From NCBI GenBank assembly GCA_017626815.1, contig JAGAHY010000140.1:404-64403 (forward strand): 64,000 nucleotides of DNA, in the 5' to 3' direction. This DNA is from Bacilli bacterium (GTDB lineage Bacteria; Bacillota_I; Bacilli_A; RFN20; CAG-826). The stretch's first letter is position 1. The number at the start of each line of letters is the position of its first letter. This document shows positions 34,266 to 63,924 of the stretch, one piece after another. The translations under genes were made by a program, and so were the position numbers. The notes beneath the pieces are model-generated. The model did not search any database, had not been told where the DNA came from, and saw nothing but the letters and a program-made list of their open reading frames with translations.

Positions 34266-34268
34266 GCG

Positions 34269-40986: not shown

Positions 40987-40991
40987 GCGAA

Positions 40992-42174: not shown

Positions 42175-42284
42175 TTGTATGTCTATATCTTTCTGATTAC
42201 CGCTCGTTTTTTGCCATTTTGCTCAGCAAAAAAATTTTTCTCTTTTCTTTGACGGAACAACCAGGGCTCCAGACACCTAATTAA

Positions 42285-43628: not shown

Positions 43629-43792
43629 CAATCGAACCGATTCTTCTAAATATCGTTTGGGAGCTTTGCTTTTTGATTACCCATATCTATTTATTTTTGG
43701 CGGAGGGTTTTGAAAATGCGACATTTAGTTAGCGAAGGCATTCCGGATCAATTCTCGGCCTTCATCGATGACAAGACATCAAGGGAGAAAAA

Positions 43793-47484: not shown

Positions 47485-47648
47485 AGATTTATGGGCTGAA
47501 AAAGGCGTTAGGTTAGGCGCGAGCTATCGATTCAAAAAATAGGCGATATGTATTTATCGTGAAGATGGGCTAATTCAGGCTTTCAAAAGATATCTCTGGC
47601 ACGCGTTGGGCGGAACGCCAGGCCAACGGAGTTCGCGCATATCGCAGC

Positions 47649-47724
47649 GGTGGTGTTATACGTCAAAGATTTTTACGCGCGAAAAGTCAGATTATTTTCA
47701 AAGAACGCCTGGAAAATTGTGAGG
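47649..47724. repeat. Right arm of the inverted repeat pair (partner 30548-30624)
   Basis: See the left arm. Confidence 0.6.
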
Positions 47725-47772
47725 TCGCGGTTTTTCCTACTCAAGAGCCATTAGATTAAAGGAGGATACAAA

Positions 47773-49281
47773 ATGCAACTCTTAACGTTATTGCTTGCGG
47801 TGTCGACAACGACATCAACAGTCCCGGCGGATAGCGCCACCGCGGGAAACGCATCTTATAGACGCGATGATCTTTCCTTTGTCGATGATTTAGAGACCGG
47901 TGATCTTTGTGATTCGGCGCACGGAGGATTCGCTTATTTCGATGAGACAGGAACCGAACTTCCTTGGCAATCGCAAATTGATTTTGCGAATCGAGAAGGT
48001 GGAACAAGGACGTTCAACGATAATCGAGAAGACAACGACTCATTTCAAGAAGCATCATGCATGAGCCCGGTTGGTTTATGGGAAGGTGGAGTATATCAAC
48101 ATAGCGCATGGCTTGATGCCACAATCTCTCTAAAACGGAGCGGATTCTGGTGGTGGGAAACAACTTGGTTAGATGTAGATTACTATATTTTTGACGCGTG
48201 TTGTACGGGAACGATGTCTGCCCAATTGACCAATATCCCATCGGGCAAAGATTACGACCTAAAAGTTTGGAAGATGTGGGATGGTCCTAACGTATCGACT
48301 TCGGACCTGAATTTTAATCAGCCCTTTAATCAAAGTATAAATTCCGGAAACGCGAACGAGACACTTACGCTTGCTGTTACTCCTGGTACATATTTTTTCT
48401 GCGTATATCCAAAAAACAAAGACACCAATCTATCAAATTATGACGAAGACAACCCTTATCATCTTTATATAGAAGAAACCGTGGATGTTACTCGCCCCTA
48501 TAGTTCATATTCTATTTCTCAAGGTAAACTCAACGGCGACAGAGGGGCGTTGTGGATATCGGATTATGCACCACTCGGGCACACGCCTGTAACCTTGTCG
48601 AACGATCAAGCGAGGGTACAAATTATCAACTACGACACCTATCCTTTTATTCGCCATCTTGCGGATAAATACAATGGTACTACGGCAATTAACTACGCAG
48701 TCTTATATGTTTGGGACGTTCCGTTGCGGGCTTCCATCAGCCAATTAGCGGGCGAATTATATGATTTGGTGAATGATTGTGCTTCTTGGGAAGCAAACCA
48801 AGCCAAACAAGCCAGTATAGATTTTAACCGCGATAATTTAGTTGTGGCTTTGAGCGGATACGCTGTTTCTTATATATCTTTGGCAGTCACTGGCCCAGCC
48901 GGGCTTGCCCTAGCGGCCTTAGGGTTTGCTGTTTCGACGATAGGACTAGTTCTGGCGGAAGCCGGTTATCTTCTTGCCTATCAATCGCAGCCGACTTTTA
49001 CTACGACGAAAACAGACCTTCTAAACTATTTAGTAAGTGTTCAGCAAACCTTCGCAGTTGGACAAGGGAGCAACAATAACGAGGTGAAAATCCTTAGATT
49101 TCGCTATCGTTTCGATAACTCATCTGGACACTATCTCGACTGGTCCCCGTTTTACAAAAGCACCGATTATAATTTCTATAACGACAACATTATTACATGG
49201 CAAATCGAGGATTCCGGAATAGACGGAACCGTGCGAGGCATACAATCACTTAATGATGTCAAGAGTCTTTTGGGGGATTAG
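47773..49281 (+). CDS. Secreted protein with PPC-like beta-sandwich region and a C-terminal hydrophobic/amphipathic segment, unknown function
   Basis: 502 aa. Signal peptide. DVDYYIFD…GTYFFCVYP pattern. Long hydrophobic stretch ALSGYAVSYISLAVTGPAGLALAALGFAVSTIGLVLAEAGYLLAY. Confidence 0.45.
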   Translation: MQLLTLLLAVSTTTSTVPADSATAGNASYRRDDLSFVDDLETGDLCDSAHGGFAYFDETGTELPWQSQIDFANREGGTRTFNDNREDNDSFQEASCMSPVGLWEGGVYQHSAWLDATISLKRSGFWWWETTWLDVDYYIFDACCTGTMSAQLTNIPSGKDYDLKVWKMWDGPNVSTSDLNFNQPFNQSINSGNANETLTLAVTPGTYFFCVYPKNKDTNLSNYDEDNPYHLYIEETVDVTRPYSSYSISQGKLNGDRGALWISDYAPLGHTPVTLSNDQARVQIINYDTYPFIRHLADKYNGTTAINYAVLYVWDVPLRASISQLAGELYDLVNDCASWEANQAKQASIDFNRDNLVVALSGYAVSYISLAVTGPAGLALAALGFAVSTIGLVLAEAGYLLAYQSQPTFTTTKTDLLNYLVSVQQTFAVGQGSNNNEVKILRFRYRFDNSSGHYLDWSPFYKSTDYNFYNDNIITWQIEDSGIDGTVRGIQSLNDVKSLLGD

Positions 49282-49285
49282 ATAA

Positions 49286-49732
49286 ATGGTTGACTCTTTT
49301 TATGTGAAGGTTCCGCGGAAAAAATACATCACGATAGATTGGCCTTTTTATATTTGCTATGTTGTTTTCGCCATGTTAGGTTTGTTCCTTTTAGTTCGTG
49401 GCATTACAACATCCAACGAATATAACCGTTTCAATTATGTTGGTATTATTGGAGGAATTGCGTTTATCGTTGTTGGCATTGGTATAATTGTTGCCCATTT
49501 TTATCTTCGGCCTGCCGGTTCGCTTCTAGTTGAGATCACGACAAATGGAACTCTTGTTTTGACATCGAAAAATTTACCGCCGCAATCAATCAAACCGATT
49601 AAAACGGAAACGCGCAAAGACGGATGGATTATAATATTCGGATCATGGCGAAATAAAGTGCTGCTACCTCCTTTAGACGAAGATGGGAAGGAAACGGCAA
49701 AACGTCTAGAAAAGGTTTTTTGGTTCGATTAA
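49286..49732 (+). CDS. Small membrane protein (2 TM plus PH-like C-terminal domain)
   Basis: 148 aa, 5 nt after the upstream stop. Overlaps the 3' end of the opposite-strand zinc-ribbon ORF. Confidence 0.4.
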   Translation: MVDSFYVKVPRKKYITIDWPFYICYVVFAMLGLFLLVRGITTSNEYNRFNYVGIIGGIAFIVVGIGIIVAHFYLRPAGSLLVEITTNGTLVLTSKNLPPQSIKPIKTETRKDGWIIIFGSWRNKVLLPPLDEDGKETAKRLEKVFWFD

Positions 49733-50116: not shown

Positions 50117-50413
50117 ATGAAAGAAGAGTTATTTAAAGCCCTAAGCGAAGAGCAAATGGCTAAATTAAAAGATTGTAATAATGTTGAAGAATTACTCGCT
50201 CTTGCTAAACAAGAAGGCATTGAACTTACTGATGATCAACTCGAAGCTGTCAATGGCGGTTGTGGTACTACTACAGGGTATTGGGGATGCCCTTACTGTG
50301 GTTATCGTTGGGGCGCCGAGAGTATAGGGTACCCCCGCCTTAGATGCTTTGGCTGTGGCCGTGAATATAACGCCAATGATAGAAAATATTTTCAAATCAA
50401 TAAGAATAAATAA
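50117..50413 (+). CDS. RiPP-type precursor peptide P2 (Nif11-like leader, GG, zinc-ribbon-like core)
   Basis: Leader MKEELFKALSEEQMAKLKDCNNVEELLALAKQEGIELTDDQLEAVNGG. Core CGTTTGYWGCPYCGYRWGAESIGYPRLRCFGCGREYNANDRKYFQINKNK. Confidence 0.7.
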   Translation: MKEELFKALSEEQMAKLKDCNNVEELLALAKQEGIELTDDQLEAVNGGCGTTTGYWGCPYCGYRWGAESIGYPRLRCFGCGREYNANDRKYFQINKNK

Positions 50414-50484
50414 TTCGTCAAAAAGATACCTATATAAGCAATAGATATGCTTGCTAAATGATAATGATCGGAGTGAACAACTAT

Positions 50485-50751
50485 ATGAGAGATGAATTAT
50501 TAAAAGGCTTAACCGAAGAGCAAATAAAGAAATTAAAAGAATGCAAAACACAAGAAGAAATCATAAGTCTCGCGAAAGAGGAAGGCGTTGAATTAACTGA
50601 TGAACAATTAGCGTCCATCTCTGGCGGAGGATGCAGAGGTGGCAGATGTCCTAAATGCGGTAGCGATTATACTTGCTGCTACGGTATTGGCAAATATGAA
50701 TGTAGTAAATGCCAATATCACTGGGGAGAGGATGAATACATCCCAAATTAA
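50485..50751 (+). CDS. RiPP-type precursor peptide P3
   Basis: Start at MRDELLKGL; the ORF-track start at 50458 is upstream of it. Leader …LTEEQIKKLKECKTQEEIISLAKEEGVELTDEQLASISGGG. Core CRGGRCPKCGSDYTCCYGIGKYECSKCQYHWGEDEYIPN. Confidence 0.7.
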   Translation: MRDELLKGLTEEQIKKLKECKTQEEIISLAKEEGVELTDEQLASISGGGCRGGRCPKCGSDYTCCYGIGKYECSKCQYHWGEDEYIPN

Positions 50752-51018: not shown

Positions 51019-51336
51019 ATGGATGACAAAATAGAGTATCAAATTTTTATCGGATGCCATGACCAATATTTTAATAATGAATATGTGACGAGCAAAGAAC
51101 TCAAAGAATTGATTGTTGAGTTTTTTGCTAGGCGAGAAGTTGATTTTTCATTGTTTTATGCGCAAGGTGGCTATTTATATGAGGATGGAAATTTTCAAAT
51201 TGAGAATTCTGTTTGTGTCAACATTATCGGCGCGGATGAAGGGGAGATTTTCCAATTAGCGAAAAACCTCTCAATGTATATGAGCCAAGAAAGCTCATTG
51301 ATCATTAAAAACCCTATTAAAATAGAACTTTTGTAA
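51019..51336 (+). CDS. Small AT-rich protein, tandem paralog 1 (unknown; candidate immunity or accessory protein)
   Basis: 105 aa. Shares a Y.IFIG…FSL….GGY…E.S…II..DE.EI pattern with the next ORF. Confidence 0.45.
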   Translation: MDDKIEYQIFIGCHDQYFNNEYVTSKELKELIVEFFARREVDFSLFYAQGGYLYEDGNFQIENSVCVNIIGADEGEIFQLAKNLSMYMSQESSLIIKNPIKIELL

Positions 51337-51346: not shown

Positions 51347-51670
51347 ATGCTCAAAAAAGGTTTTAAATACGAAATATTTATTGGTGTTAAAGATAAGGAT
51401 ACTTATTTAGAAACTTTAAGCATTGATGAAGTTAAAGATATCCTTAAAGAAGTGTGCAAAGATAAAGAAATCAACTTTTCCCTGTTAACACAAGACGGGG
51501 GTTATAAACATCATAAAGGCTATACAACCGAGACCAGTTTAAGAGTCATTATCATCGATATTGATGAAAAAGAAATTATCTCCTTGGTGGATATCTTAAA
51601 AAGAAGAATTAACACCGACACTATCATGGTCACAAAGACTGAAATTGAGTATTGTTTTTCGTTTTGGTGA
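51347..51670 (+). CDS. Small AT-rich protein, tandem paralog 2
   Basis: 107 aa. Paralogous to 51019-51336. Confidence 0.45.
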   Translation: MLKKGFKYEIFIGVKDKDTYLETLSIDEVKDILKEVCKDKEINFSLLTQDGGYKHHKGYTTETSLRVIIIDIDEKEIISLVDILKRRINTDTIMVTKTEIEYCFSFW

Positions 51671-51896: not shown

Positions 51897-52154
51897 ATGC
51901 CAGTCCAAGTAATCACGATGTCTACTAAAGGCCAAATAGTCTTGCCAAGAGAGATGAGGGAAGCGCTCTCTCTCGAAGCGGGTTCGAAGCTTGCTGTTTT
52001 CTGCGAGGACGGCGCAATTGTGCTCAAACCGCTTTCCGTCCCTTCTGCCGACGATTTCCGCGAATCCTTAAAAAAAGCGCAGGCATGGGCCATCGATAAC
52101 GGTTATTCGGAAAGTGATGTAAAGGACATCATCAAAGAGGCCCGGAAGAAATAA
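51897..52154 (+). CDS. AbrB/MazE/SpoVT-family antitoxin
   Basis: 85 aa. Swapped-hairpin motif MSTKGQIVLPREMREALSLEAGSKL. Confidence 0.7.
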   Translation: MPVQVITMSTKGQIVLPREMREALSLEAGSKLAVFCEDGAIVLKPLSVPSADDFRESLKKAQAWAIDNGYSESDVKDIIKEARKK

Positions 52155-52548
52155 AGGTTGTCGTTGACACGAACGTTTTTATTTCCGGCGTGTTTTTCGG
52201 AGGGAAGCCGCAAAGGGTTTTGGAGAAAACCGTCGACGGCGAGGTATGCGGGCTGTGCAGCGTCGAGATCCTGAACGAATACCGAGGAATCGTTAAACGA
52301 ATGGTTGAGAAGAAGGGCGGCACCCTTGACTCCGTTTTCTAAACCCCTTCTATTTGAAGCTGCAATTTGTTGCAGTCTCCACCGTTGTCAAAGAATGTAG
52401 AGACCCAGGCGACGACAAATTCCTTGCCTGTGCGCTGGACGGGGCAGCCTATTATGTAGTTAGCGGCGATTCAGATCTTCTGAGCATGCGCGAATACAAA
52501 GGAATCAAGATAGTTACAGCCAACGAGTTTTTGGAGTTGCTTAAATAA
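52151..52548 (+). pseudogene. PIN-family toxin split by a frameshift near 52330-52350 (N-terminal part …VVVDTNVFISGVFFGGKPQRVLE…; C-terminal part = ORF 52354-52548 …CRDPGDDKFLACALDGAAYYVVSGDSDLL…KGIKIVTANEFLELLK)
   Basis: The two halves are in different frames. The N-terminal part has no ATG and overlaps the antitoxin stop. Confidence 0.5.
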
Positions 52549-52727
52549 CACAAAGGCGGGGCTTTGAACCGCTGAAGAAGATATCCGCCCGCCTCTTTTG
52601 AGAGGTTGCCGATCAAATCAAAGGGCTCGATTACTCGCAATCCAACAATGATTTAAGGTGGTCTAACACCCCAACCAAGAAGTTTCGCCGCCATTGTGAG
52701 GAGGCCTTATTGTGCTTCCCTTATGTT

Positions 52728-52834
52728 CCGGTTCCGGTTTCAACTTCTTGGCTTTATGTTCCAACTGCCTACACAGGGCAGATCGAGACTGCTGCAATGT
52801 TAAGTTTGAGAGAGCCGCAAAAGTAGGCTTGCCG
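52728..52834. repeat. Repeat family A, copy 3 (diverged; contains CTTATGTTCC twice)
   Basis: ctacacagggcagatcgagactgctgcaatgttaagtttgagagagccgcaaaagtaggcttgccg versus 26521-26580. Confidence 0.5.
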
Positions 52835-53292
52835 TCAAAACTTTTTGGAAATGTCGCTTTTTGGAACGAAGGCAAGTTTTATTGATTTGATTCGCGAATG
52901 GAATTTGGGCATAGGTAAGTAAGAGCCGTTTCCCCGCTTTCGTCGCCCGATTACGCACACAAAAGCAGTAGGGGGCGTAAAACGCGGGTTTTGCAAGTAT
53001 GTACGAGCAAAACATATTCACACCAATGAATCTGTGGCCCAGGATTGACTTGGCAAACAATCCGACTAAAACCTAATTGAATTCGAAAAAAGTCAGAAAG
53101 GAGCGTTTTGACGATGTATATTACACGCGCATAAAACCACATTTTTTGATAGGCGACGAGAAATCTATCATATGAAGGTATGCTTCATTAGGAAATTGAA
53201 AAATACGGTTTCCGCTTGTGACCAAAAAGGAAACAAGAAAATAAGAGGGGATTATGGTGAGAGGGTCCTTAATGCGACTTCGCGTTAGTCTT

Positions 53293-53508
53293 CTACAACC
53301 CATTGTGCCCGTAACTCAGGCATTCGTATTCCTTCACCCAATCGGCTCTTGGGATGCGACACGTATTGGCGCTTTGACAATGGGGGCATGGAGGGAGTTA
53401 GGCCTGGCAATTGCCACCAGAGACGGCCTCCAGTTGATCGTCGTTAAGCTCGACACCTTCTTCTTTGGCGACCATCAAGATTTCTTCCTGGCTTTTGTTT
53501 GGTTTGCT
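53293..53508 (-). pseudogene. Decayed precursor-peptide paralog P5 (…SKPNKSQEEILMVAKEEGVELNDDQLEAVSGGNCQA*LPPCPHCQSANTCRIP…)
   Basis: Leader second half plus GG plus a CPxC core, with an in-frame TAA after the first core residues. The first half of the leader is missing. Confidence 0.5.
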
Positions 53509-53661
53509 TTATCCTGCCTCAGGAATGTAGGGATAAGGCTTGCGTCACCTTATTGTCCTGTCGAAGATTGGCAAAAAGCGCCGCTAAAGATTTCTTCGCC
53601 CCTTATTCGTATCATTGGGCGATTTAACCATAATCGGCATGGGATTTGCCGCTGAAATTCG

Positions 53662-53687
53662 AAAAAAGCCATCCGATAAAGGATGGC
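53662..53687 (-). terminator. Intrinsic terminator downstream of P4 (gccatcc…ggatggc stem plus U-run on the minus strand)
   Basis: 7-bp stem, 6-nt loop, 6 T on the coding strand. Confidence 0.5.
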
Positions 53688-53737
53688 AAAATTGTTGGAT
53701 TTTAGAAATTTTAATGGGCTTTTGCGGGTTGAAGCGA

Positions 53738-54013
53738 TCAGGATATGACGCCTTTGGCCCTTCTGAATTTATGGCCGCAGTGGGGGCAGGTGTAGTTGTA
53801 ATAATCGTCGCAGCTGCTGCCGTCGATTTTTTGCCCGCAGTTGGGGCAATCGATGTCGTTGAGGCAGTTGCCGCCGGAGACGGCTTCTAATTGCTCGCTA
53901 GTAAGCTCGACGCCTTCTTCCTTTGCAATTCTGAGGAGTTCATCCTGATTATTGCAGGCTTTGACTTTCGCGATTTGTTCTTGGGTCAGCCCATGTAGTA
54001 ATTCTTCTTTCAT
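53738..54013 (-). CDS. RiPP-type precursor peptide P4
   Basis: Leader MKEELLHGLTQEQIAKVKACNNQDELLRIAKEEGVELTSEQLEAVSGG. Core NCLNDIDCPNCGQKIDGSSCDDYYNYTCPHCGHKFRRAKGVIS. AAGGAG RBS 8 nt upstream. Confidence 0.7.
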   Translation of the reverse strand: MKEELLHGLTQEQIAKVKACNNQDELLRIAKEEGVELTSEQLEAVSGGNCLNDIDCPNCGQKIDGSSCDDYYNYTCPHCGHKFRRAKGVIS

Positions 54014-54064
54014 GGTGGTTCTCCTTTTCAGTTTCAGTATATCAAGAGAACATTGGGCGCAAAA

Positions 54065-54472
54065 TCAAATTTTCTTCTTCAGCGTCAGGATGTTTTTATT
54101 GTCTACGCGGCAATAAGTGGTCTCGTCCATGACGTTTTTGACGATGAAGATACCAAGCCCGCCGATTTGGCGGCTTTCTGCGGGAAGAGCAATATTGGGG
54201 TCTTCTTTCGCTAAGGGATCAAACGCTTTGCCGCTATCGGCGATGATGATCGTCAAAAGACGGGTTTCCTCATCGAAGTCATAATCGATTTCGATGTCAC
54301 CCGTGCCCGGTTCATAGGCATAGGAAGCGATGTTGGTATAGAGCTCGTCTAGGGCCAACTCGATCTTGTTGAGCAACTTAAAGTCGGCGTCGTGGTCTTC
54401 CAGCAGGGCAATGATGGGCTCGATGCCTTTGGCGATGACTTTTTTATCCGCGGGAATGACGATATGTTTCAT
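54065..54472 (-). CDS. RsbW/SpoIIAB-like anti-sigma factor / serine kinase (HATPase_c)
   Basis: 135 aa. G-box GGLGIFIVKNVMDE. 4-nt overlap with the upstream phosphatase gene. Confidence 0.7.
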   Translation of the reverse strand: MKHIVIPADKKVIAKGIEPIIALLEDHDADFKLLNKIELALDELYTNIASYAYEPGTGDIEIDYDFDEETRLLTIIIADSGKAFDPLAKEDPNIALPAESRQIGGLGIFIVKNVMDETTYCRVDNKNILTLKKKI

Positions 54473-56016
54473 TGTTCTTCACACCCCCTGTATTCCAAGC
54501 ACAGCATCGTGATGTCGTCGAATTGGTCGTTGGTTCCCATAAAGACCTTTAATTCGTCCAACATGCTTTTGCAAATGACTTCCGGAGTTTCATATTCGTA
54601 TCTTTGCAAGGCTTTTAAGGCGCGTTCTAGCTGATATTGGCCGTCGTTACCGACGCATTCTGGGACACCGTCGGTATATACAAAGACCTTGGAGCCCTTT
54701 TCTAATTGGATTTGGTATTCGCGGTAAGGGACCCCATCCATAAAGCCGACGACCAAGTCGTGTTTATCTTTATAGATCTCGAAATTGGCGCCCGCCCCTT
54801 TGATGATCGGATATTCGTGGCCGCCATTCGCGGCGGTTAATAGGCCGGTTTTTAAGTCTAACGTGGCAAACCACACCGTGACGAAGAGACGGTGCTGATG
54901 GTTGGCGCATAGCTGTTTGTTTGCTTTATAGAGGACTTCTTTCGGCGAAAGCCCCATCATGGCGTAGTTTTGCAGGATGATTTTGCTTTGCATCATGAAC
55001 AAAGCGGAAGGGACGCCCTTATCGGAGACGTCGGCGATGACGATGCCGAGGTGGTCTTTGTCGATGAGAAAGAAGTCGTAGAAGTCACCGCCGACTTCTT
55101 TGGCGGGGTGCGTCAGCGCATAGATATCGAATTCTTTATGGTCGGGGAAGGCCGGGAATTTGTTGGGCAAGGCGTCCATTTGGATGCTGGTGGCGAGATT
55201 TAGTTCTTTGCTTTTGGAATAGAGGAGTTTTTCGTTGTCGTAGGACAGCAAAGAATAAACCAGCACCAAGGCGATCATCATGCCAGGATAGGAGACGGAG
55301 AGGCCTTCTTCTCCCCAAGCGGCGAGAAGGCCAAACACGGGGATGCCAAGGAAGACGACGACGACGATCTTGTTGCGCAACTTCTGCTTGGAGATGAATA
55401 ACGAGACAATCGCAACGATGAAAATCAGCGTCATATAGATGTCGCCGATCCAATAGGTCTCGGAAGCGACGGGGAATCCGGTTTCGAGATCGATGGTGAA
55501 ATAGAGGGGGTAGAAGAAATTGACGAACGACAGAAGGGCGAAAATCACGCCCAAGGCAAACAGGATGATATCTAAGACGGCAGCGACTTTCCTTTTGGTG
55601 CTTAGCGTGTGGGAGATGTAGAGCCAATAGCCGAAGCCGAACACTATTTCCGCGAGGTACACCAAGATGACCATGATGCGGCTTAGGGTGGCCAGGCCGT
55701 TTCCGGCAATGCACATCTTTGAGATGTCCACAAAGCACAAGAAGCAACCTATGGTCAGCAAGATGACGAACATTTCGACGCGAACGCCTTGCCTTTTATA
55801 AGCGGGAAGGAGGGTGGCGACGATGACGATCGCGATCATGATAGTGACGATCTCCGCGCCGATGGAAAAACCGAAGTTCGCTTCGGTGTAGTCAAAGATT
55901 TCAATGATGGCGACGGCCCCGACCAAGAACGCGCACATTAAGCCGAACATGACGGGAATCAGCCATGGTCTTTTGCTGATTGCTTCAACAGTATTATTTT
56001 GTTTTTCCATAACCAA
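54469..56016 (-). CDS. Membrane-bound PP2C-type serine phosphatase (RsbU/SpoIIE family) with an N-terminal ~8-TM sensor region
   Basis: 515 aa. PPM motifs GGDFYDF, IADVSDKGVPSALFM, YTDGVPE, DDITML. Confidence 0.8.
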   Translation of the reverse strand: MVMEKQNNTVEAISKRPWLIPVMFGLMCAFLVGAVAIIEIFDYTEANFGFSIGAEIVTIMIAIVIVATLLPAYKRQGVRVEMFVILLTIGCFLCFVDISKMCIAGNGLATLSRIMVILVYLAEIVFGFGYWLYISHTLSTKRKVAAVLDIILFALGVIFALLSFVNFFYPLYFTIDLETGFPVASETYWIGDIYMTLIFIVAIVSLFISKQKLRNKIVVVVFLGIPVFGLLAAWGEEGLSVSYPGMMIALVLVYSLLSYDNEKLLYSKSKELNLATSIQMDALPNKFPAFPDHKEFDIYALTHPAKEVGGDFYDFFLIDKDHLGIVIADVSDKGVPSALFMMQSKIILQNYAMMGLSPKEVLYKANKQLCANHQHRLFVTVWFATLDLKTGLLTAANGGHEYPIIKGAGANFEIYKDKHDLVVGFMDGVPYREYQIQLEKGSKVFVYTDGVPECVGNDGQYQLERALKALQRYEYETPEVICKSMLDELKVFMGTNDQFDDITMLCLEYRGCEEQ

Positions 56017-56165
56017 ACGCCTCTATTTTTGAAAATATCGTGGCAGGCCAATCCCCTTTTAGGCCGCGAATAGATCCGTGTTGGCCCTTATTTTAACAAA
56101 GCCGCCCTGCGAAAAACCATATCTTCTTATGTATTCGCGCGGGCGTTTATGTTACCTTATGTTCC

Positions 56166-57341
56166 ATGACGGACAAAGAGACCCTCACCTTGATGTGGAA
56201 GGACTACGAAGTGCTTTCCTTCGAGGTGAATTACGAAAAATATGGCCTTCAGTTCTTGGAAGAGAAAGAGCATTTTGATAAAGCCCCCTATGACTTGGCA
56301 AAGGCAAAAGACAAACGCCTTGGCCTACTTCGCTTTTTCGGCAGTAGGGCGATTCCCTCCATGCGCAGCGGTTTCCAAGCCATCATGGATGCGACGCATT
56401 GCCGCAATGAATTGGAACTATCGTTTAAAGGGCATGGGCTCTCCCTCTCCAGTCATTATTGGATCAAACGGGAAGGGGAGAATCTCCGCTATGAGGACAT
56501 CAATTTTTTTACCCACCAATGGGATGATTCTTTCGGCAGGGCTCTCCTGCGCGGTGACTATGAGGCGCTAGGGGGATGCGATTTCAATGTCCCTGACATC
56601 ACCACCCCGGGATGGGGAAACAAAGGCTGGCTCTATGAAGACGGGCCTAAGCTTTATAAGCGCGGCTTAGATCCCGAGCATTCCGAAGAGGCGATATGTG
56701 AAGTCTTAGCGTCAAGCATCGCGAGCAGGATCATCCCTGGCGGCGAAGTCCTTCCCTACGAACTAAGGAAATTCGACGGGAAGTATGTTTCGGTTTCTTC
56801 CTGTTTCCTCGGAATGGACGAGGAATTGGTCCCCTTATCTTCTATTTTGTCCGCGGAGTTATCGGAGCTTTATCGGGAAAAGGCCAGGAACAAAGACCTG
56901 AATAAAGAATTTTTCGATAAGCTCGCCCAAACTGGCTACGCCGAGTGGTCGACGTTCTTCGTCAAGGTGGCGTGCTTACGTTCCCTGTGCTTTGTTTCCG
57001 ATTTGCATTTTGGCAACCTCTCCGCGATCCAAAACATGGAGACCGGAGCATTAAGGCTCGCCCCGATTTACGATTTCGGCGGCGCCTTTGGCTCTTCGGC
57101 GAAAGGGAGGCAATTCCTTGCTAACGCGAATAAAGCGGCCTTCTTGCTCATCTATTTCGTGTATGGGGACCTCAATCCCGATTGGGATTATTCGTGGTAT
57201 GATCCCAATCGGCTCATCGGCGCGGAAGAGGAGATCCGGGACTATTTATCCAAAACAGGTTTTTATACGCCAGAGTACATCGACTGTGCTCTTGACATCT
57301 TCAGGCGGCAGAAGAAAATGTTGGATGAAATGAAAAAATAA
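56166..57341 (+). CDS. Protein with a HipA_C-like kinase-fold signature (…SDLHFGNLSAI…LAPIYDFG…), function unknown
   Basis: 391 aa. The D-x-H-x-x-N-L-S and LAPxYD motifs resemble the HipA catalytic and Mg-binding loops. Ends 13 nt before radical-SAM maturase 2. Confidence 0.4.
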   Translation: MTDKETLTLMWKDYEVLSFEVNYEKYGLQFLEEKEHFDKAPYDLAKAKDKRLGLLRFFGSRAIPSMRSGFQAIMDATHCRNELELSFKGHGLSLSSHYWIKREGENLRYEDINFFTHQWDDSFGRALLRGDYEALGGCDFNVPDITTPGWGNKGWLYEDGPKLYKRGLDPEHSEEAICEVLASSIASRIIPGGEVLPYELRKFDGKYVSVSSCFLGMDEELVPLSSILSAELSELYREKARNKDLNKEFFDKLAQTGYAEWSTFFVKVACLRSLCFVSDLHFGNLSAIQNMETGALRLAPIYDFGGAFGSSAKGRQFLANANKAAFLLIYFVYGDLNPDWDYSWYDPNRLIGAEEEIRDYLSKTGFYTPEYIDCALDIFRRQKKMLDEMKK

Positions 57342-57353
57342 TGGAGTTTTGCT

Positions 57354-58748
57354 ATGTATTATCGATTAAAAGACACTATTGCATTACGAAAATGGAGATA
57401 CGTTGAACGCGCCGTATACCGCAAGGGCGTGGAGAACGCCTTCGGTGTGACCGAAGCGGAATTCGAGCTTTTGCAGCAGTGCGATGGGGAAACGGACATC
57501 GAGCCCAATCCTTACTTGGCTGGCTTGCTCGACCGCCAGCTCATCGAGCCTTGCGAAAAGGGCCAGAAGGCGAATCCGTGGTCCTTGCTCCATACCTATG
57601 ATAATTATTACTTCCCGAAGATGAACCTTATGATCACCGGGAAATGCAACTTGAATTGCCTCCATTGTTTTAACGCGAAAGACAACGCCCCCTTAAATAC
57701 GGAACTTTCCTATGAGCAGGTGCTGAATATCCTCGATCAGGCCCGCGATATCGGCGTGCACGCGTTCACGATCACCGGTGGCGAGCCGCTGGTGCACAAA
57801 CGCTTCCTCGATATCGTCCGCGCCATCTATGAAAGAGATATGTTCATCTTCGAATTGAACACAAATGGCTTGCTCATCACCCAGGAGATGCTGGATGTCT
57901 TTAAGGAACTAGGGTGCTACCCGCTAATCAAGATTTCTTTCGATGGCGTCGGCTACCATAACTGGATCCGCCAGCATCCTAAGGCGGAAGAGCTTACCCT
58001 TAAAGCCATCGAACTTTGCATCAAAAACGGCTTTGCGGTGAAGGCGCAAGTCCAAGTGAACCGTAAAAACGTCGATTCCATGGAAAAGACCGCGAGGCTT
58101 TTAAACGACATGGGCGTCACGGAGATGCGCATCATCCGCACCACGGAAGCGCCCCGCTGGGAAAAGAATTCGCCCAATTCTTCGTTGACGATCGAGGAAT
58201 ATTTCGAGCAAATGACGGCTTTTGCCAAGAATTATATGCAAAGTGATATGACCATGACTATCGACATTTGGCAGTTGATGAGACTTTATCCATCCGCGAA
58301 AACGTATGATCTCGTCCCCATCGCCTGCGACAAGGACGAATTTAATATCCGCATCCCCATGTGCAAAGGAAACCGTGGCATGATCGCGATTTCTTCGAGT
58401 GGAGAAGCGGTGCCCTGCTTGCAAATGTCAGGCTGGTTCCTCGAACGGGGAATCAGTCTTGGAAACGTCTTGAAAACCCCGTTAAAAGAGCTGGTCACCA
58501 AAAGCGATTACCTCAACCTCGCGATGGCGACGTTGCTGAAGCAAATCCTCGAAAACGATAAGTGTGGCAACTGCAAATACTATAAGGCCTGCACGGGTGG
58601 TTGCCCCGCCTTAGGATTGCTCTATTCCAAAAACGGTGATTATTATCATGAAGATGTGACAAAATGTGCTTTCTTTGAAAATGGCTGGTATGATTTAATA
58701 GTAAAAGAATTGGCGTCTTGGCGCCTATTGAAACCCCTCAACATCTGA
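57354..58748 (+). CDS. Radical SAM/SPASM-domain peptide-modifying enzyme (maturase 2)
   Basis: 464 aa. CNLNCLHC. SPASM cluster CGNCKYYKACTGGCP…C. Confidence 0.85.
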   Translation: MYYRLKDTIALRKWRYVERAVYRKGVENAFGVTEAEFELLQQCDGETDIEPNPYLAGLLDRQLIEPCEKGQKANPWSLLHTYDNYYFPKMNLMITGKCNLNCLHCFNAKDNAPLNTELSYEQVLNILDQARDIGVHAFTITGGEPLVHKRFLDIVRAIYERDMFIFELNTNGLLITQEMLDVFKELGCYPLIKISFDGVGYHNWIRQHPKAEELTLKAIELCIKNGFAVKAQVQVNRKNVDSMEKTARLLNDMGVTEMRIIRTTEAPRWEKNSPNSSLTIEEYFEQMTAFAKNYMQSDMTMTIDIWQLMRLYPSAKTYDLVPIACDKDEFNIRIPMCKGNRGMIAISSSGEAVPCLQMSGWFLERGISLGNVLKTPLKELVTKSDYLNLAMATLLKQILENDKCGNCKYYKACTGGCPALGLLYSKNGDYYHEDVTKCAFFENGWYDLIVKELASWRLLKPLNI

Positions 58749-58800
58749 TGGCTGACTTATTGGCATAAAACGCCGAAAACGCCATCAACCCCATTGCCCG

Positions 58801-59190
58801 ATGAAAAAAGAAAACGTCACTATCTCTAGCCCTGATGAGCTAAACGCGCATCTGCAGTCTTCCTCTCCTATTACCTGGATTGCTTTAGGCACGGTTATCG
58901 CCCTCATCCTTGGACTGTTTGTTTGGTCCGGTGTTTACGAACTCCCGATTATGATTTCAGGCGCCGCCTCCGTCACCAACGGCATCGCCAGTTTGACCGT
59001 GGAAGAACGGGCGAAGGATAAACTCGAGGCGGGTCAAAAAATCTACATTTTGGACAAGGACGGGTATCTCTCTTTTGACGAAGAAAACAACCCCGTTGTC
59101 TTAAACATAGATCTCAGCGACGGGCAATACACCTATCGCACGGATACCGAGCTTGAAAAGATTCGACCCATCCAATATTTATTCAGGTAA
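58801..59190 (+). CDS. Small single-TM protein (possible short membrane-fusion/accessory component of the exporter)
   Basis: 129 aa. TM ITWIALGTVIALILGLFVW. Immediately precedes the C39-ABC gene. Confidence 0.4.
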   Translation: MKKENVTISSPDELNAHLQSSSPITWIALGTVIALILGLFVWSGVYELPIMISGAASVTNGIASLTVEERAKDKLEAGQKIYILDKDGYLSFDEENNPVVLNIDLSDGQYTYRTDTELEKIRPIQYLFR

Positions 59191-59194
59191 CACC

Positions 59195-61372
59195 ATGAAA
59201 AAGAAGGAAATCAAGAAACCGACAAGCGGCAGGAAGGTCGCGGATGTCCCGATCATCATGCAGTTGGAGGCCCTCGAATGCGGGGCCGCCTCTTTAAGCA
59301 TGGTCATGGCCTATTACGAAAAATGGGTCGCTTTGGAGCAGGTTCGCGTCGATTGCGGCGTCTCCCGTAATGGTTCTAACGCGAAAAATATCTGCCGCGC
59401 CGCCGAGAAATACGGCTTTAAGGCCAAAGGCTATGCCTATAACATTCAGAAATTGAAGGAAAGGGGCAAATTCCCCGCGATTATCCACTGGGGCGGCGGT
59501 CACTTCGTCGTCTTGGATGGCATTCGTGGCAACAAAGCCATCATCAACGACCCCGCGAAAGGGTTGGTCAAAGTCGATTTGAAGACTTTTGACAAGATTT
59601 TCACCGGCATCTACATCGAAATCGTTCCCGGCGAGAATTTCGAACCCGGCGGCAAGAAAAAATCCATCTTCGCCTTCGCTAAAAAGAGGCTTAAAGGCGC
59701 GGTTGCCTTGATTACTTTCTTCGCGATCACCACGATCGTGTTCTATCTGTTCACGATTATCAATCCGGCGTTAAACCAAGTATTCGTCGACCGACTGTTG
59801 GGCGGCAATAATCCGAATTGGCTGATTCCATTCATCGGCATTTTCGGTGGCCTTGGCTTGCTTCAGGTCATCGTCACGGCCGTCCAAACCCTCTATGAAT
59901 ATAAGATTAGGGGCAAATTGGACCTTATTGGTTCGACCACCTACATGTGGAAGATTTTAAGGCTCCCCATCGACTTCTTCTCCCAGCGCATGGTCGGCGA
60001 CTTACAATCGCGCCAGAGCGAAAACGCCTCCATCGCCGAAACGTTGGTCAACGTCTTCGCGCCGCTGCTTTTCAATTCCATCATGCTCATCGTCTATTTG
60101 GCGGTCATGATCAGCAAGAGCGCGTGGCTGGCCTTAGTCGGCGTCATCACCGTTCTCATCAACATCTTCGTCTCCCAATACATTTCCAAGGTCCGCGTCA
60201 ATATCTCCAGGGTCCAGGCCCGCGATAATTCGCGTCTTGGCGCGATGACTTCCAAGGGCATCGAGATGATCGAAACCATCAAGTCTAACGGTGCGGAAAC
60301 CTCCTATTTCTCGTCCTGGCAAGAAGCCGCCGACAGCGTCTACGCCCAAAACGTGAAGATGGCCAAAACCAATCAGTTTATCGGCCTCGTTCCGGCGCTT
60401 GTGTCGATGATTGCCAACTATTCCGTCTTGATTCTCGGCGTTTATTTCACGATTAACGGCAGTTTCACCGTCGGTTCTATTTTGGCTTTCCAGGGTCTAT
60501 TAAGCGCCTTTATGTCGCCGGCGATGACCATTATCTCCAGCGGACAGACGTTGCAGGAGATGCGCACCCAGATGGAACGTGTCGACGACGTTTTGGAATA
60601 CCCTCTTGATTCTAACGTCACCCGCGAAATCGAGATGGAGCACGTCTCCAAAATCAAAGGCAACCTGATCCTTAGAGATCTCACCTTTGGTTATTCTCGA
60701 TTGGGCCGCCCGGTCTTATCGAATTTCAATCTCGAGATCAAACAGGGCCAGAAGGTCGCCATCGTCGGTTCCACCGGCAGCGGCAAATCCACGATTTCCA
60801 AATTGATCTCCGGGCTTTACGCGCCATGGTCTGGCGAGATTATCTTCGATGGAAAGCGGATTGAAGAAATCGACCATGAAATCTTCACTTCCTCGATCGC
60901 CGTCGTCGATCAGGACATCACCCTCTACGAAGACACGATCATGAACAACTTGAAGATGTGGGACCAGTCCATCACCGACATGGAAGTCAAAATGGCCTGT
61001 ATTGATGCCCAAATCCACAAGACCATCGCCGCGAGGGAAGGCGGTTATAATGCCCCCGTCCTCGAGAACGGCAAAAACTTCTCCGGTGGCGAGAAGCAAC
61101 GTTTAGAAATCGCGCGTTCCTTGGCGATGGACCCGAGCATCATCATCCTCGATGAAGCCACCAGCGCCCTCGATGCCAAAACGGAATTTGACGTCGTTAA
61201 TGCCATCAAAGAACGCGGTATTACCACGATTGTCATCGCGCATAGACTTTCCACGATCCGCGACGCCGATTTGATCGTCGTCCTCGATCATGGCCATATT
61301 GTCGAGCAGGGCAACCATGACACCTTAATGGCCCTGAAAGGCGCTTATTACGATTTGGTGACGAACGAATAG
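59195..61372 (+). CDS. Bacteriocin-type ABC exporter with an N-terminal C39 double-glycine peptidase domain
   Basis: Start MKKKEIKK; the ORF-track start at 59153 is upstream of it. C39 Cys in QLEALECGAASLSMV and His in HFVVL. 6-TM domain. GSTGSGKST, FSGGEKQR, IIILDEATSALD. Confidence 0.85.
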   Translation: MKKKEIKKPTSGRKVADVPIIMQLEALECGAASLSMVMAYYEKWVALEQVRVDCGVSRNGSNAKNICRAAEKYGFKAKGYAYNIQKLKERGKFPAIIHWGGGHFVVLDGIRGNKAIINDPAKGLVKVDLKTFDKIFTGIYIEIVPGENFEPGGKKKSIFAFAKKRLKGAVALITFFAITTIVFYLFTIINPALNQVFVDRLLGGNNPNWLIPFIGIFGGLGLLQVIVTAVQTLYEYKIRGKLDLIGSTTYMWKILRLPIDFFSQRMVGDLQSRQSENASIAETLVNVFAPLLFNSIMLIVYLAVMISKSAWLALVGVITVLINIFVSQYISKVRVNISRVQARDNSRLGAMTSKGIEMIETIKSNGAETSYFSSWQEAADSVYAQNVKMAKTNQFIGLVPALVSMIANYSVLILGVYFTINGSFTVGSILAFQGLLSAFMSPAMTIISSGQTLQEMRTQMERVDDVLEYPLDSNVTREIEMEHVSKIKGNLILRDLTFGYSRLGRPVLSNFNLEIKQGQKVAIVGSTGSGKSTISKLISGLYAPWSGEIIFDGKRIEEIDHEIFTSSIAVVDQDITLYEDTIMNNLKMWDQSITDMEVKMACIDAQIHKTIAAREGGYNAPVLENGKNFSGGEKQRLEIARSLAMDPSIIILDEATSALDAKTEFDVVNAIKERGITTIVIAHRLSTIRDADLIVVLDHGHIVEQGNHDTLMALKGAYYDLVTNE

Positions 61373-61387
61373 AAAGAGAAACGGCAT

Positions 61388-63571
61388 ATGGGTTGGTTCG
61401 AAGAGCAAGTAAAGCAAAGAAAGAAACTCGATGCGAAGACGTTCGAGGATTCTTTTAAGTCGCTCGCCGGTATTCACGTCAAAAACCAGAAGAATCTTTC
61501 TGACGAAGAAATCCGAGAGAATTTCGCCATCTCGCAGATTCTTTCCTATTTTCATCATCAGATGGTGGATATCCCCGCCGGCGTCACGAAATTCAAAGAT
61601 AAACTTAACTACATCCTGGGCCATTTCGGCATCGAATATCATAACGTCCAACTTACCGACGCTTATGTGAATGAAAATGGCTCCCCGTTATTGATTTATA
61701 CCCTCATCGGGGAAATCCCCATCATTTTGTTCCCTGCCAAGGGCAATCAGTATTACTACATCCATTACGGAACCGGCAAGAAAACCTATATCGACGCGGC
61801 CATGATCCATGGTCTTGAAATTGATGCGATTAGTTTCTATCGCCCCCTTCCGAGCAAAGGCGTTTCTATTAAGGAATACGTGAAATATATCGGGAAGTCG
61901 ATAAGGCCCTTGGATATCGTTCTCCTCATCGTCTTTGCCGCGCTTTCCTCTGGCGTTGGCCTTTTGGTGCCTTACCTCACCCAAAGATTAACGGGTGAAG
62001 TGGTGCTCAATAAAGACATTAGCCTATTCATCGCGGTCTCGCTTTATGTCGTCGCGGCCGCGACTGGCGTATTGCTGGTTAAGGCGGTTCAGGCTTTCGT
62101 CAACACGCGGATTATGTTGAAAATTCAAAAATCCGTGCAGGAAGCGACGATGATGAGGGTTTTGAACCTTCCGGCTGCCTTCTTTAAGAAATACAATACC
62201 GGTGAATTGACCGCTCGTTTCTCCAGCGTCAATAGCTTGGCGAGCATGATTGTCAACGGCATCTTCACGACCCTCGTTTCGGTGGTCATGTCCCTCGCTT
62301 ATTTATTCCAACTCGCCGGCTTTGCGTCTACGCTAGTCCCCATTGTTGTGGCGATCTTGTTTGCGACCACGGCCTTCAGCGTTGCCATCGCCTTGATTCA
62401 GAAGAAATATACCCGACAGACCCTTGAGCTATCTTCCAAGGAGTCCGGCGTCACCTATGAAATGATCAACGGCATCCAAAAGATTAGGCTATCCGGCTCG
62501 GAAAAGCGCGTCTTCGCCAAGTGGGCGAGCGCCTATGCCCGTTCCGCGGAGGTGAGATACCATCCTCCTCTGATTTTGCGTTTATCCCCTGCAATTTCCC
62601 TATTAATTACATTACTTGGTAACGTCGCTATCTACTATGTGGCCGCTAGAAGTGGTCTCTCGGCTGGTAGCTACATGGCTTTCGTCACCGGCTATGGCGT
62701 CCTTTCCGGCGCCTTCGCCTCCGTGACTTCCATGGTCGGCGTCATCACCTCGATTAAGCCGACTTACGACATGGCTAAGCCCATCTTAGAGGCCGAGCCG
62801 GAGACCGCTCAGAACAAACTCGTCTTGGAAAAGGTCAAAGGTAACATCCGCTTCGAAAACGTCTCCTTCAAATACATCGAAAATGGACCGCTTATCCTAA
62901 ACGACCTCTCCCTCGATATCAAAGAAGGCGAATATGTCGCGATTGTCGGCCAAACTGGATGCGGCAAATCCACCCTAATCCGCGTGCTTCTCGGGTTCGA
63001 AGAGCCCTTAAGCGGGCGCGTGACGGTGGATGGCCATGACGTCAAAGACCTTGACCCCTCGTCGCTTCGTAGGCGCATCGGCACGGTCCTTCAAAACGGT
63101 ACGCTTTTCCACGCGGATATCTTCTCCAACATCATCATTTCTTGCCCCAACGCAAGCGAAGAAGATGCCTGGGCCGCGGCGGAAATCGCCGATATCGCCG
63201 ACGACATCAGAGAGATGCCGATGGGCATGAAGACGGTCATCTCGGAAGGCCAAGGCGGCATTTCCGGCGGCCAGAAGCAGCGCATCATGATCGCCCGCGC
63301 CATTGTCCATCACCCCAAGATCTTGATCTTCGATGAGGCCACCAGTGCCCTCGACAATAAGACGCAAAAGAGCATCACCGAATCCATCAACAAGCTCAAT
63401 TGCACCCGACTTGTCATCGCGCACAGGCTTTCCACGATTAAAAACGCGGATAGAATTATCATGCTCGAAGGCGGTAAGATTATCGAAGAAGGCAGCTACG
63501 ATTCCTTGATTGCCCAAAAAGGCAAATTCGCGGAACTGGTCGAGAGACAGCGCCTGGATAACAACGAATAA
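61388..63571 (+). CDS. Second ABC exporter subunit with an N-terminal peptidase-like domain lacking the catalytic Cys
   Basis: 727 aa. GQTGCGKST, ISGGQKQR, ILIFDEATSALD. The N-terminal ~150 aa are C39-like in size but carry no Cys/His pair. Confidence 0.8.
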   Translation: MGWFEEQVKQRKKLDAKTFEDSFKSLAGIHVKNQKNLSDEEIRENFAISQILSYFHHQMVDIPAGVTKFKDKLNYILGHFGIEYHNVQLTDAYVNENGSPLLIYTLIGEIPIILFPAKGNQYYYIHYGTGKKTYIDAAMIHGLEIDAISFYRPLPSKGVSIKEYVKYIGKSIRPLDIVLLIVFAALSSGVGLLVPYLTQRLTGEVVLNKDISLFIAVSLYVVAAATGVLLVKAVQAFVNTRIMLKIQKSVQEATMMRVLNLPAAFFKKYNTGELTARFSSVNSLASMIVNGIFTTLVSVVMSLAYLFQLAGFASTLVPIVVAILFATTAFSVAIALIQKKYTRQTLELSSKESGVTYEMINGIQKIRLSGSEKRVFAKWASAYARSAEVRYHPPLILRLSPAISLLITLLGNVAIYYVAARSGLSAGSYMAFVTGYGVLSGAFASVTSMVGVITSIKPTYDMAKPILEAEPETAQNKLVLEKVKGNIRFENVSFKYIENGPLILNDLSLDIKEGEYVAIVGQTGCGKSTLIRVLLGFEEPLSGRVTVDGHDVKDLDPSSLRRRIGTVLQNGTLFHADIFSNIIISCPNASEEDAWAAAEIADIADDIREMPMGMKTVISEGQGGISGGQKQRIMIARAIVHHPKILIFDEATSALDNKTQKSITESINKLNCTRLVIAHRLSTIKNADRIIMLEGGKIIEEGSYDSLIAQKGKFAELVERQRLDNNE

Positions 63572-63586
63572 AAAGGAGGATTACTC

Positions 63587-63880
63587 ATGGAACACAAACT
63601 TAATAATGGAACGCTGACCATTTTCCTGAAAGGGAAGATCAATTCCAGCAACTCAGAAGAAGCCGAACAGGAAATCAACCGCATCATTGCGGATAATTCC
63701 TTCACCAGTCTCGTCTTCGACCTTGGCGAGCTCGTTTATATCTCCTCTGCGGGATTAAGGATCCTCCTCGGGGTCAAACAAGAACACGATGACACCAAGC
63801 TGGTCAATGTCTCCGACGCCATCTACGAAATCCTCGTTATGGTCGGCTTTGATAGCGTCCTTACCATTGAAAGACAATAG
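63587..63880 (+). CDS. STAS-domain anti-sigma-factor antagonist (SpoIIAA/RsbV-like)
   Basis: 97 aa. Conserved phosphorylatable region …LVYISSAGLRILL. Confidence 0.75.
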   Translation: MEHKLNNGTLTIFLKGKINSSNSEEAEQEINRIIADNSFTSLVFDLGELVYISSAGLRILLGVKQEHDDTKLVNVSDAIYEILVMVGFDSVLTIERQ

Positions 63881-63899
63881 GGGAGCGGTAACTTATTAT

Positions 63900-63924
63900 G
63901 CGCGGTTATTTGGCCGCGCTTTTT
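63900..63924 (+). terminator. Intrinsic terminator (gcgcgg-ttatttgg-ccgcgc plus TTTTT)
   Basis: Perfect 6-bp GC stem, 8-nt loop, 5-T run. Confidence 0.6.

Follow-up and report, generated by a model that had tools for sequence, protein, structure and literature searches.

A membrane phosphatase, a serine kinase and a STAS protein as a putative phosphorylation switch of a radical SAM peptide cassette in a Bacilli bacterium

The stretch of DNA considered here is a 64,000-nucleotide segment of contig JAGAHY010000140.1 (positions 404 to 64,403 of the forward strand) from the Bacilli bacterium assembly GCA_017626815.1, referred to below, in its full length, as the window. Within it, the genes of an RsbW-type serine kinase, a membrane phosphatase of the PP2C (SpoIIE) family and a protein that consists of a STAS domain only bracket the genes of a HipA-like kinase, a radical SAM/SPASM maturase, a short HlyD-like protein and two ABC exporters, ABC1 and ABC2 (Table 1). 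With a probability of about 0.5, the three together make up a single serine-phosphorylation switch, integral to a ~10.5-kb cassette for a peptide that is made by the ribosome and modified after translation (RiPP), with the STAS protein as the likeliest output. In the proposed mechanism, the kinase would phosphorylate the STAS protein on S54, and a signal related to the membrane, the envelope or a peptide, perceived by the eight-helix membrane domain of the phosphatase, would prompt this enzyme to strip the phosphate. The phosphorylation state of the STAS protein would then set the production or the export of the peptide.

The functional affiliation of the kinase, the phosphatase and the STAS protein with the peptide, maturase and export block, which was proposed in the initial annotation, is well supported by the comparison of related loci, which are designated here by L-numbers (L011, L012, L097 and so on). 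Contigs of the same species (the 'Bacilli bacterium' metagenome-assembled genome GCA_017635755.1) are identical to the window. The exact split order, with the switch genes at the two ends of the block, is kept in two relatives, L011 (phosphatase 72% identical) and L012 (80%), in which the flanking genes differ. Translated similarity between the window and these two loci spans positions 53400-63886, so that the kinase/precursor side and the stop codon of the STAS gene mark the two limits of the conserved block.

A wider survey was anchored on the maturase, whose homologues (64–98% identical) came from a metagenome scan and three look-ups of gene context and were annotated with profiles built for this work. 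It yielded 21 loci in which ABC2 is present with no less than about 400 nt of sequence behind it, and some of these loci are closely related to one another. The STAS gene is present inside the cluster in 20 of the 21 loci and directly follows ABC2 in 16. The phosphatase and/or the kinase is found in 17, and the four loci without either mostly have very short flanks. When all open reading frames (ORFs) of these loci were clustered against each other, the families occurring in more than five loci were the precursors, the radical SAM protein, the HlyD-like stub, the ABC exporters, the STAS protein, the kinase/PP2C family and the HipA-like protein, and no others. By this count, the STAS and kinase/PP2C families occur in 16 loci each and the HlyD-like gene in 17. 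The switch trio recurs in nearly every related cassette found, and so it probably controls the cassette.

Such recurrence is observed across at least six gene orders, of which types A to E are listed in Table 1. The membrane phosphatases of these clusters have three sensor architectures: eight transmembrane (TM) segments, four to five TM segments, or a TM segment, an extracellular domain, a second TM segment and HAMP. The association extends to a distant Lachnospiraceae cluster, L060, in which precursor, radical SAM protein, HlyD-like protein, ABC1, ABC2, STAS protein, kinase, phosphatase and a further precursor are encoded in one direction, and in L093 a phosphatase and a STAS protein lie beside export genes. 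The conservation of the split arrangement itself, on which the initial annotation had placed weight, is narrower. The association of STAS protein, phosphatase and kinase recurs widely, whereas the split order is confined to the close lineage of the window. A profile scan of genome contigs with the PP2C alignment returned mostly catalytic-domain paralogues and did not recover the window's own species.

Besides the PP2C-kinase fusions, two kinds of fusion proteins were noted among the related cassettes. A STAS::APH fusion of 384 aa with an HGDCHFKN motif, in which STAS is joined to a phosphotransferase domain of the APH type (L095 6838-7992; L105 16567-17721), is encoded between the plain STAS gene and the fused PP2C-kinase gene. 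MatE-family efflux proteins are encoded beside the export genes in three cassettes (L095 2169-3926; L115 18961-20712; L124 9783-10835). The L095 protein carries a C-terminal RsbW-like kinase domain and falls into one cluster with the proteins from L115 and L124; for the L115 protein, Pfam gave MatE alone at a threshold of E 0.01 or better.

Table 1. Features of the switch, the cassette and its surroundings in the window, followed by the gene orders of related cassettes
Feature	Position or loci	Strand	Evidence or remarks
Two further precursors	50117-50413, 50458-50751	+	Similar leader (ends NGG or SGGG), Cys-rich core; homologues in related loci
Intrinsic terminator of the PP2C-kinase-precursor unit	53668-53687	-	7-bp stem, 5 G-C pairs, TTTTTT
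Precursor, 91 aa	53738-54013	-	Nif11-like leader ending GG, Cys-rich CxxC...CxxC core; Nif11 E 4e-4, TIGR03798 E 2e-4
RsbW-type serine kinase/anti-sigma-like protein, 135 aa	54065-54472	-	HATPase_c_2 E 3e-22
Membrane PP2C (SpoIIE-family) phosphatase, 513 aa	54469-56010	-	8 TM, then catalytic domain; SpoIIE E 1e-45, residues 320-509
Divergent intergenic region	56011-56165		Expected from sequence to contain both units' promoters
HipA-like kinase-fold protein, 391 aa	56166-57341	+	Foldseek to HipA; no Pfam hit
Radical SAM/SPASM peptide maturase, 464 aa	57354-58748	+	Radical_SAM E 2.5e-22, SPASM E 2e-6, CNLNCLHC motif
Short single-TM HlyD-like protein, 129 aa	58801-59190	+	TIGR03794 positions 2-54, E 2e-6; TM residues 27-45
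Peptidase-C39 ABC exporter (ABC1)	59195-61372	+	TIGR03796 820 bits (cutoff 853), Peptidase_C39 E 3e-32
Second ABC exporter subunit without peptidase domain (ABC2)	61388-63571	+	TIGR03797 660 bits (cutoff 709)
STAS-domain-only protein, 97 aa	63587-63880	+	Phospho-acceptor S54 (predicted); STAS E 8e-13
Intrinsic terminator of the plus-strand unit	63900-63919	+	8-bp stem, 6 G-C pairs, T run; top-scoring site of the region
Cassette type A	window, L011, L012		Split order
Cassette type A'	L097		8-TM PP2C cut to a 54-aa remnant; fused PP2C-kinase ~600 bp away
Cassette type B	L099, L110, L124, L129		ABC2-STAS-fused PP2C-kinase
Cassette type C	L104, L105, L123, L134		ABC2-STAS-STAS::APH-fused PP2C-kinase
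Cassette type D	L095		Type C regulatory block upstream of maturase, plus MatE::kinase fusion
Cassette type E	L113, L115, L116, L117		STAS before maturase, or PP2C-STAS-sigma-kinase between maturase and exporter

The positions and identities of the three switch genes, which were first called from the sequence alone, are borne out by significant family matches, with scores far below the equivalog cutoffs of RsbW, SpoIIAB and SpoIIAA. The best named relatives of the kinase are RsbW and SpoIIAB. In the alignment to RsbW (6M36), its N box (E43, N47), G1 motif (D79-x-G81; DxGxxF) and G2 motif (GGLG) are intact. In the phosphatase, residues D309, D327, D447 and D498/D499 are invariant across 24 homologues, as are the metal-binding aspartate motifs GGDFYD, DVSDKG, TDG and FDD; the match to the SiaA model is weak (E 3e-8) and far under its cutoff. 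The eight-TM sensor that had been proposed for its N-terminus agrees with eight to nine hydrophobic peaks and with the AlphaFold2 model (pLDDT 80.7), which places eight long helices within residues 17-266, ahead of the catalytic domain. The phosphatase gene had been drawn at 54469-56016. Its family and strand stand, and the start probably lies slightly further in: the ATG at 56010 is the likelier one, as it has an AGAGG ribosome-binding site and a protein of 513 aa is called in related contigs.

The STAS protein scores 51 bits against the NCBIfam superfamily of anti-sigma-factor antagonists (cutoff 53). Its residue S54 aligns with the phospho-serine of SpoIIAA (an alanine in 1TID). The motif Y[IV]SSAGLR is invariant in 75 of 75 STAS proteins (YISSAGLR in the window). 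Single-sequence and profile searches of all six frames found no second STAS protein, HATPase_c_2 kinase or PP2C in the 64-kb window, and the STAS protein is thus the only one in the window, as initially stated.

The switch and cassette genes are arranged in two divergent units. On the minus strand, the stop codon of the phosphatase gene overlaps the start codon of the kinase gene by 4 nt, and the 91-aa precursor gene starts 51 nt downstream of the kinase gene on the same strand, before the terminator at 53687-53668. On the plus strand, the STAS gene has its own ribosome-binding site and starts 15 nt beyond the stop codon of ABC2. Its place directly after the second exporter, and the strong terminator past it, match the first description of the region; this terminator and that of the minus-strand unit are the two best terminator-like sites of the region. 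In the divergent intergenic region, a convincing consensus promoter was not found, and nothing resembling the promoters of extracytoplasmic function (ECF) sigma factors was seen there. Rfam and tRNA scans of the window, and an E-value-based Rfam scan of the ORF-poor stretch 52500-53760, gave no matches.

The components of the trio have different relatives. Every one of the 20 proteins closest to the window STAS protein is a STAS protein from such a cassette (43–83% identity). The nearest relatives of the window kinase beyond type A are the kinase domains of fused eight-TM PP2C-kinases (52–56% identical), as opposed to 27–35% identity to the cassette-type fused kinases. The same is seen for the eight-TM phosphatase. 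Kinase-fused forms make up many of its homologues, and the closest beyond type A are PP2C-kinase fusions of 650 aa, each followed by its own STAS gene in unrelated contexts. Judged by these sequence relationships, the STAS protein is native to the cassette, and the phosphatase and kinase are recruits from a fused eight-TM PP2C-kinase module, placed at the opposite end. The split is therefore read as a paralogous replacement, rather than as one module cut in two, and the initial description of cognate components separated by the biosynthetic block gives way to that of a chimeric set. L097, with its truncated phosphatase, looks like an intermediate or derived state. The alternative scenario, in which the peptide cluster was inserted into an existing PP2C-kinase-STAS operon, was rejected, as the STAS protein falls among its counterparts from the cassettes, apart from those of the eight-TM module. 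Linkage to peptide genes, which the initial annotation took as decisive, is accordingly uneven: the closest full-length phosphatase relatives outside the lineage lack it, which speaks in part against the initial reading for the phosphatase and kinase, but not for the STAS protein. All three genes are kept intact across a range of 72–100% phosphatase identity, which argues that they work jointly.

The strongest competitor to a switch with the STAS protein as output is canonical partner switching, a doubtful reading for the window. In this mechanism, the kinase would hold a sigma factor encoded elsewhere, either an ECF sigma factor of the window or an unlinked one, and the dephosphorylated STAS protein would free it for transcription of the precursors and the cassette. 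Genuine ECF-type sigma factors of ~165 aa are indeed encoded within the module in the sister cassettes L115 (13567-14070), L113 (9495-9986) and L114 (616-1131), with Sigma70_r2 matches of E 2e-18 to 7e-22 and an additional r4_2 domain. The gene orders are STAS-sigma-kinase in L115, where the stop codon of the sigma gene meets or overlaps the start codon of the kinase gene, STAS-sigma-radical SAM in L113 and sigma-radical SAM in L114. The window kinase is a separate 135-aa RsbW-like protein, and the window sigma gene at 41608-42174 sits between the precursor genes at 38406 and 50117. On the other hand, a sigma factor for the kinase to sequester, in partner switching usually encoded in the same operon, is found in L113-L115 alone and is missing from the window cassette, and no sigma gene lies in or beside the cassettes of types A, B, C, D or F. 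Sigma70 genes are absent from the Pfam-labelled neighbourhoods of types A-D, a profile of the type E sigma factor has no match in types A-D or F, and no sigma factor was seen within 10 kb of the L011 and L012 cassettes by Pfam labels, searches with the window sigma factors or the type E profile. Control through one of the two ECF/anti-sigma pairs of the window, suggested in the initial annotation, appears unlikely. These sigma genes (11726-12253 and 41608-42174) lie 12-42 kb away from the cassette, behind each there is a separate gene for a single-pass membrane protein as a candidate anti-sigma factor, and they match the cassette sigma profile weakly (E 1.7e-5 and 2.5e-3); they are poor candidates for the output. 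Moreover, the precursors are preceded by housekeeping-like extended -10 boxes (TTGATAnAnT), with no ECF-like motif seen there, and the kinase is fused to the membrane phosphatase in most of the sigma-less cassettes.

Two further explanations concern the direction and the existence of the control. One of the exported peptides could itself be the signal, with phosphatase, kinase and STAS protein as a receptor pathway in the role that a histidine kinase and a response regulator play in GG-leader peptide systems of the Com/Blp type. This pathway would control wider physiology in addition to, or instead of, the cassette. The layout, with GG-leader peptides, a C39 ABC exporter and a membrane sensor, resembles that of pheromone and bacteriocin loci, and no two-component system is among the families recurring across the 21 loci. 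The phosphatase has also changed its sensor domain repeatedly from one cassette type to another, a pattern that co-diversification of the sensor and a putative ligand would lead one to expect. This explanation is nevertheless unlikely, as up to nine diverse precursors are encoded per locus (L110, L123), more in the manner of a bacteriocin arsenal than of a single pheromone, and the eight-TM PP2C-kinase module is also encoded where peptide genes are lacking. Finally, the cassette may merely have landed beside, or picked up, paralogues of phosphatase, kinase and STAS protein, which are very numerous in rumen Firmicutes; several copies were present in many of 80 PP2C-anchored loci. The mixed origin of the trio and the unrelated contexts of the closest full-length phosphatase relatives outside type A would fit such a juxtaposition, but it is very improbable given that the STAS gene keeps its place in the cassettes across several gene orders and differing genomic flanks. 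In addition, the association recurs in the distant Lachnospiraceae cluster, the intergenic gaps of 15–60 nt are consistent with one operon, and the STAS and kinase/PP2C families recur about as often as the HlyD-like gene.

For the serine-phosphorylation switch itself, output through the STAS protein, acting on a protein of the cassette, is the most likely route in our analysis, and the ABC1/ABC2 exporter would be the first candidate target. The STAS protein is favoured on account of the cassettes without a sigma gene, the PP2C-kinase fusions that resemble SypE/SypA, and the known STAS proteins that act directly; the MatE::kinase and STAS::APH fusions also point to an output other than a sigma factor. 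Several observations weigh on the other side. The sigma factors inside the modules of L113-L115 show that members of the family do employ the canonical anti-sigma route, and the window kinase stands alone as anti-sigma kinases do. In four loci the STAS gene is next to the maturase gene and not to the exporter gene, and L057 has a phosphatase with no STAS protein or kinase within 10 kb. An ABC2-STAS fusion was not found: the best 150 ABC2 matches among 1.84 billion representative proteins contained no STAS, kinase or sigma domain. The STAS proteins of the non-peptide eight-TM PP2C-kinase modules (L013, L015) are only 26–29% identical to that of the window, and kinase and STAS protein, coming from different module lineages, may not be cognate. 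In view of these mixed lineages, we infer rather than observe the cognate pairing of the kinase and phosphatase with the window STAS protein.

A comparison with known systems places the cassette between several of them. SpoIIE is a polytopic membrane PP2C, and sigma B and sigma F are group-3 sigma factors. The RsbU/RsbV/RsbW-sigma B and SpoIIE/SpoIIAA/SpoIIAB-sigma F systems of Bacillus share with the window a PP2C, an HATPase_c_2 serine kinase and a STAS protein with a phospho-serine position. They differ in that the window cassette type has no sigma gene and its switch genes lie at opposite ends, and on opposite strands, of a peptide cassette, and in that the sigma factor next to the STAS protein and kinase of L113-L115 is of the small ECF type.

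Among systems with other outputs, the syp module is part of a polysaccharide biosynthesis and export locus, and SypE is a cytoplasmic protein with a receiver domain. In Vibrio fischeri, this one protein with kinase and phosphatase activity sets the state of the STAS protein SypA, which acts on an unknown target (PMC8256260). The relatives of the window module are likewise mostly PP2C-kinase fusions. In contrast to SypE, the phosphatase of the window is membrane-embedded and the kinase has a gene of its own, and the products of the locus are ribosomal peptides. Another example is BtrU/BtrV/BtrW of Bordetella, a partner-switching-type module that controls a secretion system and whose output is not a known sigma factor (PMC8256260). 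In the SiaABCD system of Pseudomonas aeruginosa, the PP2C SiaA and the kinase SiaB control the phosphorylation of SiaC, which activates the diguanylate cyclase SiaD of the same operon (PMC7647112, PMC8457831). Unlike in the switch proposed here, SiaC is phosphorylated on threonine and its target is a cyclase; no GGDEF gene is present in the window cassette.

The closest precedent for a STAS protein acting on an exporter is MlaB of Escherichia coli, a STAS-only protein that binds and regulates the co-encoded ABC ATPase subunit MlaF (PMC7367683). The likeness lies in the position of the STAS gene directly behind the second ABC exporter gene, and for the cassettes it is a likeness of gene order; transporter type and substrate differ, and no STAS-ABC fusion was found. 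MlaB is not known to be under the control of a kinase/phosphatase pair. In cyanobacteria, the regulation of a glycosyltransferase by a STAS module has been described (PMC13555669). The export genes resemble the nitrile hydratase leader peptide (NHLP)/Nif11-leader systems (TIGR03794/TIGR03796/TIGR03797; PMC2887384) in the Nif11-like GG leader, the peptidase ABC exporter, the second ABC exporter and the HlyD-like gene. The differences are scores just below the cutoffs, the reduction of HlyD to a 129-aa stub, the radical SAM/SPASM maturase, and the addition of the HipA-like kinase and of the switch trio; the paper that first described this export set makes no mention of STAS, anti-sigma or phosphatase components (PMC2887384).

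The protein families involved are all known, and what is new is the context in which they occur and their apparently obligatory association with the cassette. For RiPP and bacteriocin clusters, the control usually described is by two-component systems, by quorum-sensing peptides or by transcription factors specific to the cluster. In full-text literature searches, no paper was found that in its title or abstract links partner switching to RiPP or radical SAM clusters or to bacteriocin production. It is conceivable, and we put it forward tentatively, that the cassettes represent an undescribed class of RiPP clusters, in which a switch of membrane PP2C, RsbW-type kinase and STAS protein takes the place of two-component or quorum-sensing control, and the STAS protein acts post-translationally, depending on its phosphorylation, on the C39 ABC exporter, the maturase or the HipA-like kinase. 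A signal sensed at the membrane would then gate the maturation or export of the peptide and not transcription. Within the cassette, the switch is conserved to roughly the same degree as the export genes; it recurs in many uncultured rumen Bacilli and in one Lachnospiraceae genome or more. Should it control production or export, it would offer a handle to activate these silent clusters, for example by the STAS substitutions S54A and S54D or by deletion of the phosphatase or the kinase. It would also add a new class of output to partner switching, and the related cassettes would constitute a natural series on the change of output, from the sigma-containing type through the sigma-less types to the PP2C-kinase, STAS::APH and MatE::kinase fusions.

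The remaining genes of the cassette are consistent with peptide maturation and export. Both family matches of the 91-aa precursor (Pfam Nif11 and TIGR03798) are under the family cutoffs; the GG motif is visible, and homologues are present in related loci. The spacer behind the kinase gene contains an extended -10-like box, TTGATATACT, and the precursor gene also has a ribosome-binding site of its own. The maturase contains the CxxxCxxC cluster motif and a C-terminal SPASM domain, with no equivalog-level match to any named maturase. The HlyD-like stub matches the N-terminus of the HlyD protein of NHLP systems alone (2-54 of 421 TIGR03794 positions) and so lacks the full-length form; the short form, of 127–161 aa, is kept in 17 of the 21 loci. 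TIGR03796 and TIGR03797 are the best hits of ABC1 and ABC2, both below cutoff. ABC1 is called as a protein of 725 aa in related contigs and is predicted from its domains to cleave the GG leader and export the peptide.

The 391-aa protein encoded at the start of the plus-strand unit has, in its AlphaFold2 model (pLDDT 89.9), a HipA-like kinase fold and is predicted to be a kinase. Foldseek matched the model to HipA (4pu5, 2wiu, 3tpt) with a probability of 1.0, E 1e-8 and a TM-score of ~0.55. Residues D279, H281, N284 and D303 are invariant and correspond to the D-x-H-x-x-N catalytic loop and the downstream Mg-binding Asp, and one homologue carries PF07804. The gene is present in 12 of the 21 related loci; we are not aware of any function described for HipA-like kinases in peptide-maturation clusters. 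The possibility that this protein is a homologue of the L095 STAS::APH fusion, which would have provided a Rosetta-stone link, was discarded: no BLASTP similarity was found, and the protein is HipA-like instead.

Further precursor genes surround the cassette. In the same-species contigs, a fifth precursor-like gene is found past the window end, along with transporter genes and the gene of a CPT-like kinase, and there is no sigma gene there. The fifth precursor-like gene (94 aa; L001 10497-10781, minus strand, equivalent to ~64083-64367) is convergent with the STAS gene, and precursors therefore flank the cassette on both sides in this species. A decayed precursor gene is recognizable at ~53330-53480 (minus strand) in the ORF-poor stretch, with a leader ...KSQEEILMVAKEEGVELNDDQLEAVSGG and a Cys-rich core broken by stop codons; in the remainder of 52600-53700 there was no convincing ORF and no Rfam match. 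Behind the precursor pair on the plus strand lie two adjacent genes for paralogous small proteins of 105 and 107 aa (51019-51336 and 51347-51670, plus strand), which have no family match; a stretch similar to this pair is present in L012. A fourth intact precursor of the same family (38406-38672, plus strand) lies beside an apparent second peptide cluster (40036-49732). This cluster contains the ECF-like sigma gene at 41608-42174 (minus strand) with a single-TM protein at 40992-41621 (minus strand), a radical SAM protein without SPASM (42285-43628, plus strand), a 977-aa ABC protein and several proteins without family match.

Elsewhere in the window, two copies of an unusual gene pair occur at 7206-11416 and 32025-36296 (plus strand), in which the first gene encodes a fusion of a helix-turn-helix (Cro/C1) domain and an ABC ATPase (~740 aa) and the second a fusion of an ABC ATPase and an FtsX permease (~680 aa). 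Genes of toxin-antitoxin type are scattered at 25106-26445 (AbiEi/AbiEii), 27241-28284 (Fic) and 51897-52548 (AbrB-like and probable PIN-like), the last pair being called by eye from the translations. Together with the lower GC content at 26-30 kb and 48-52 kb, these genes suggest an accessory island.

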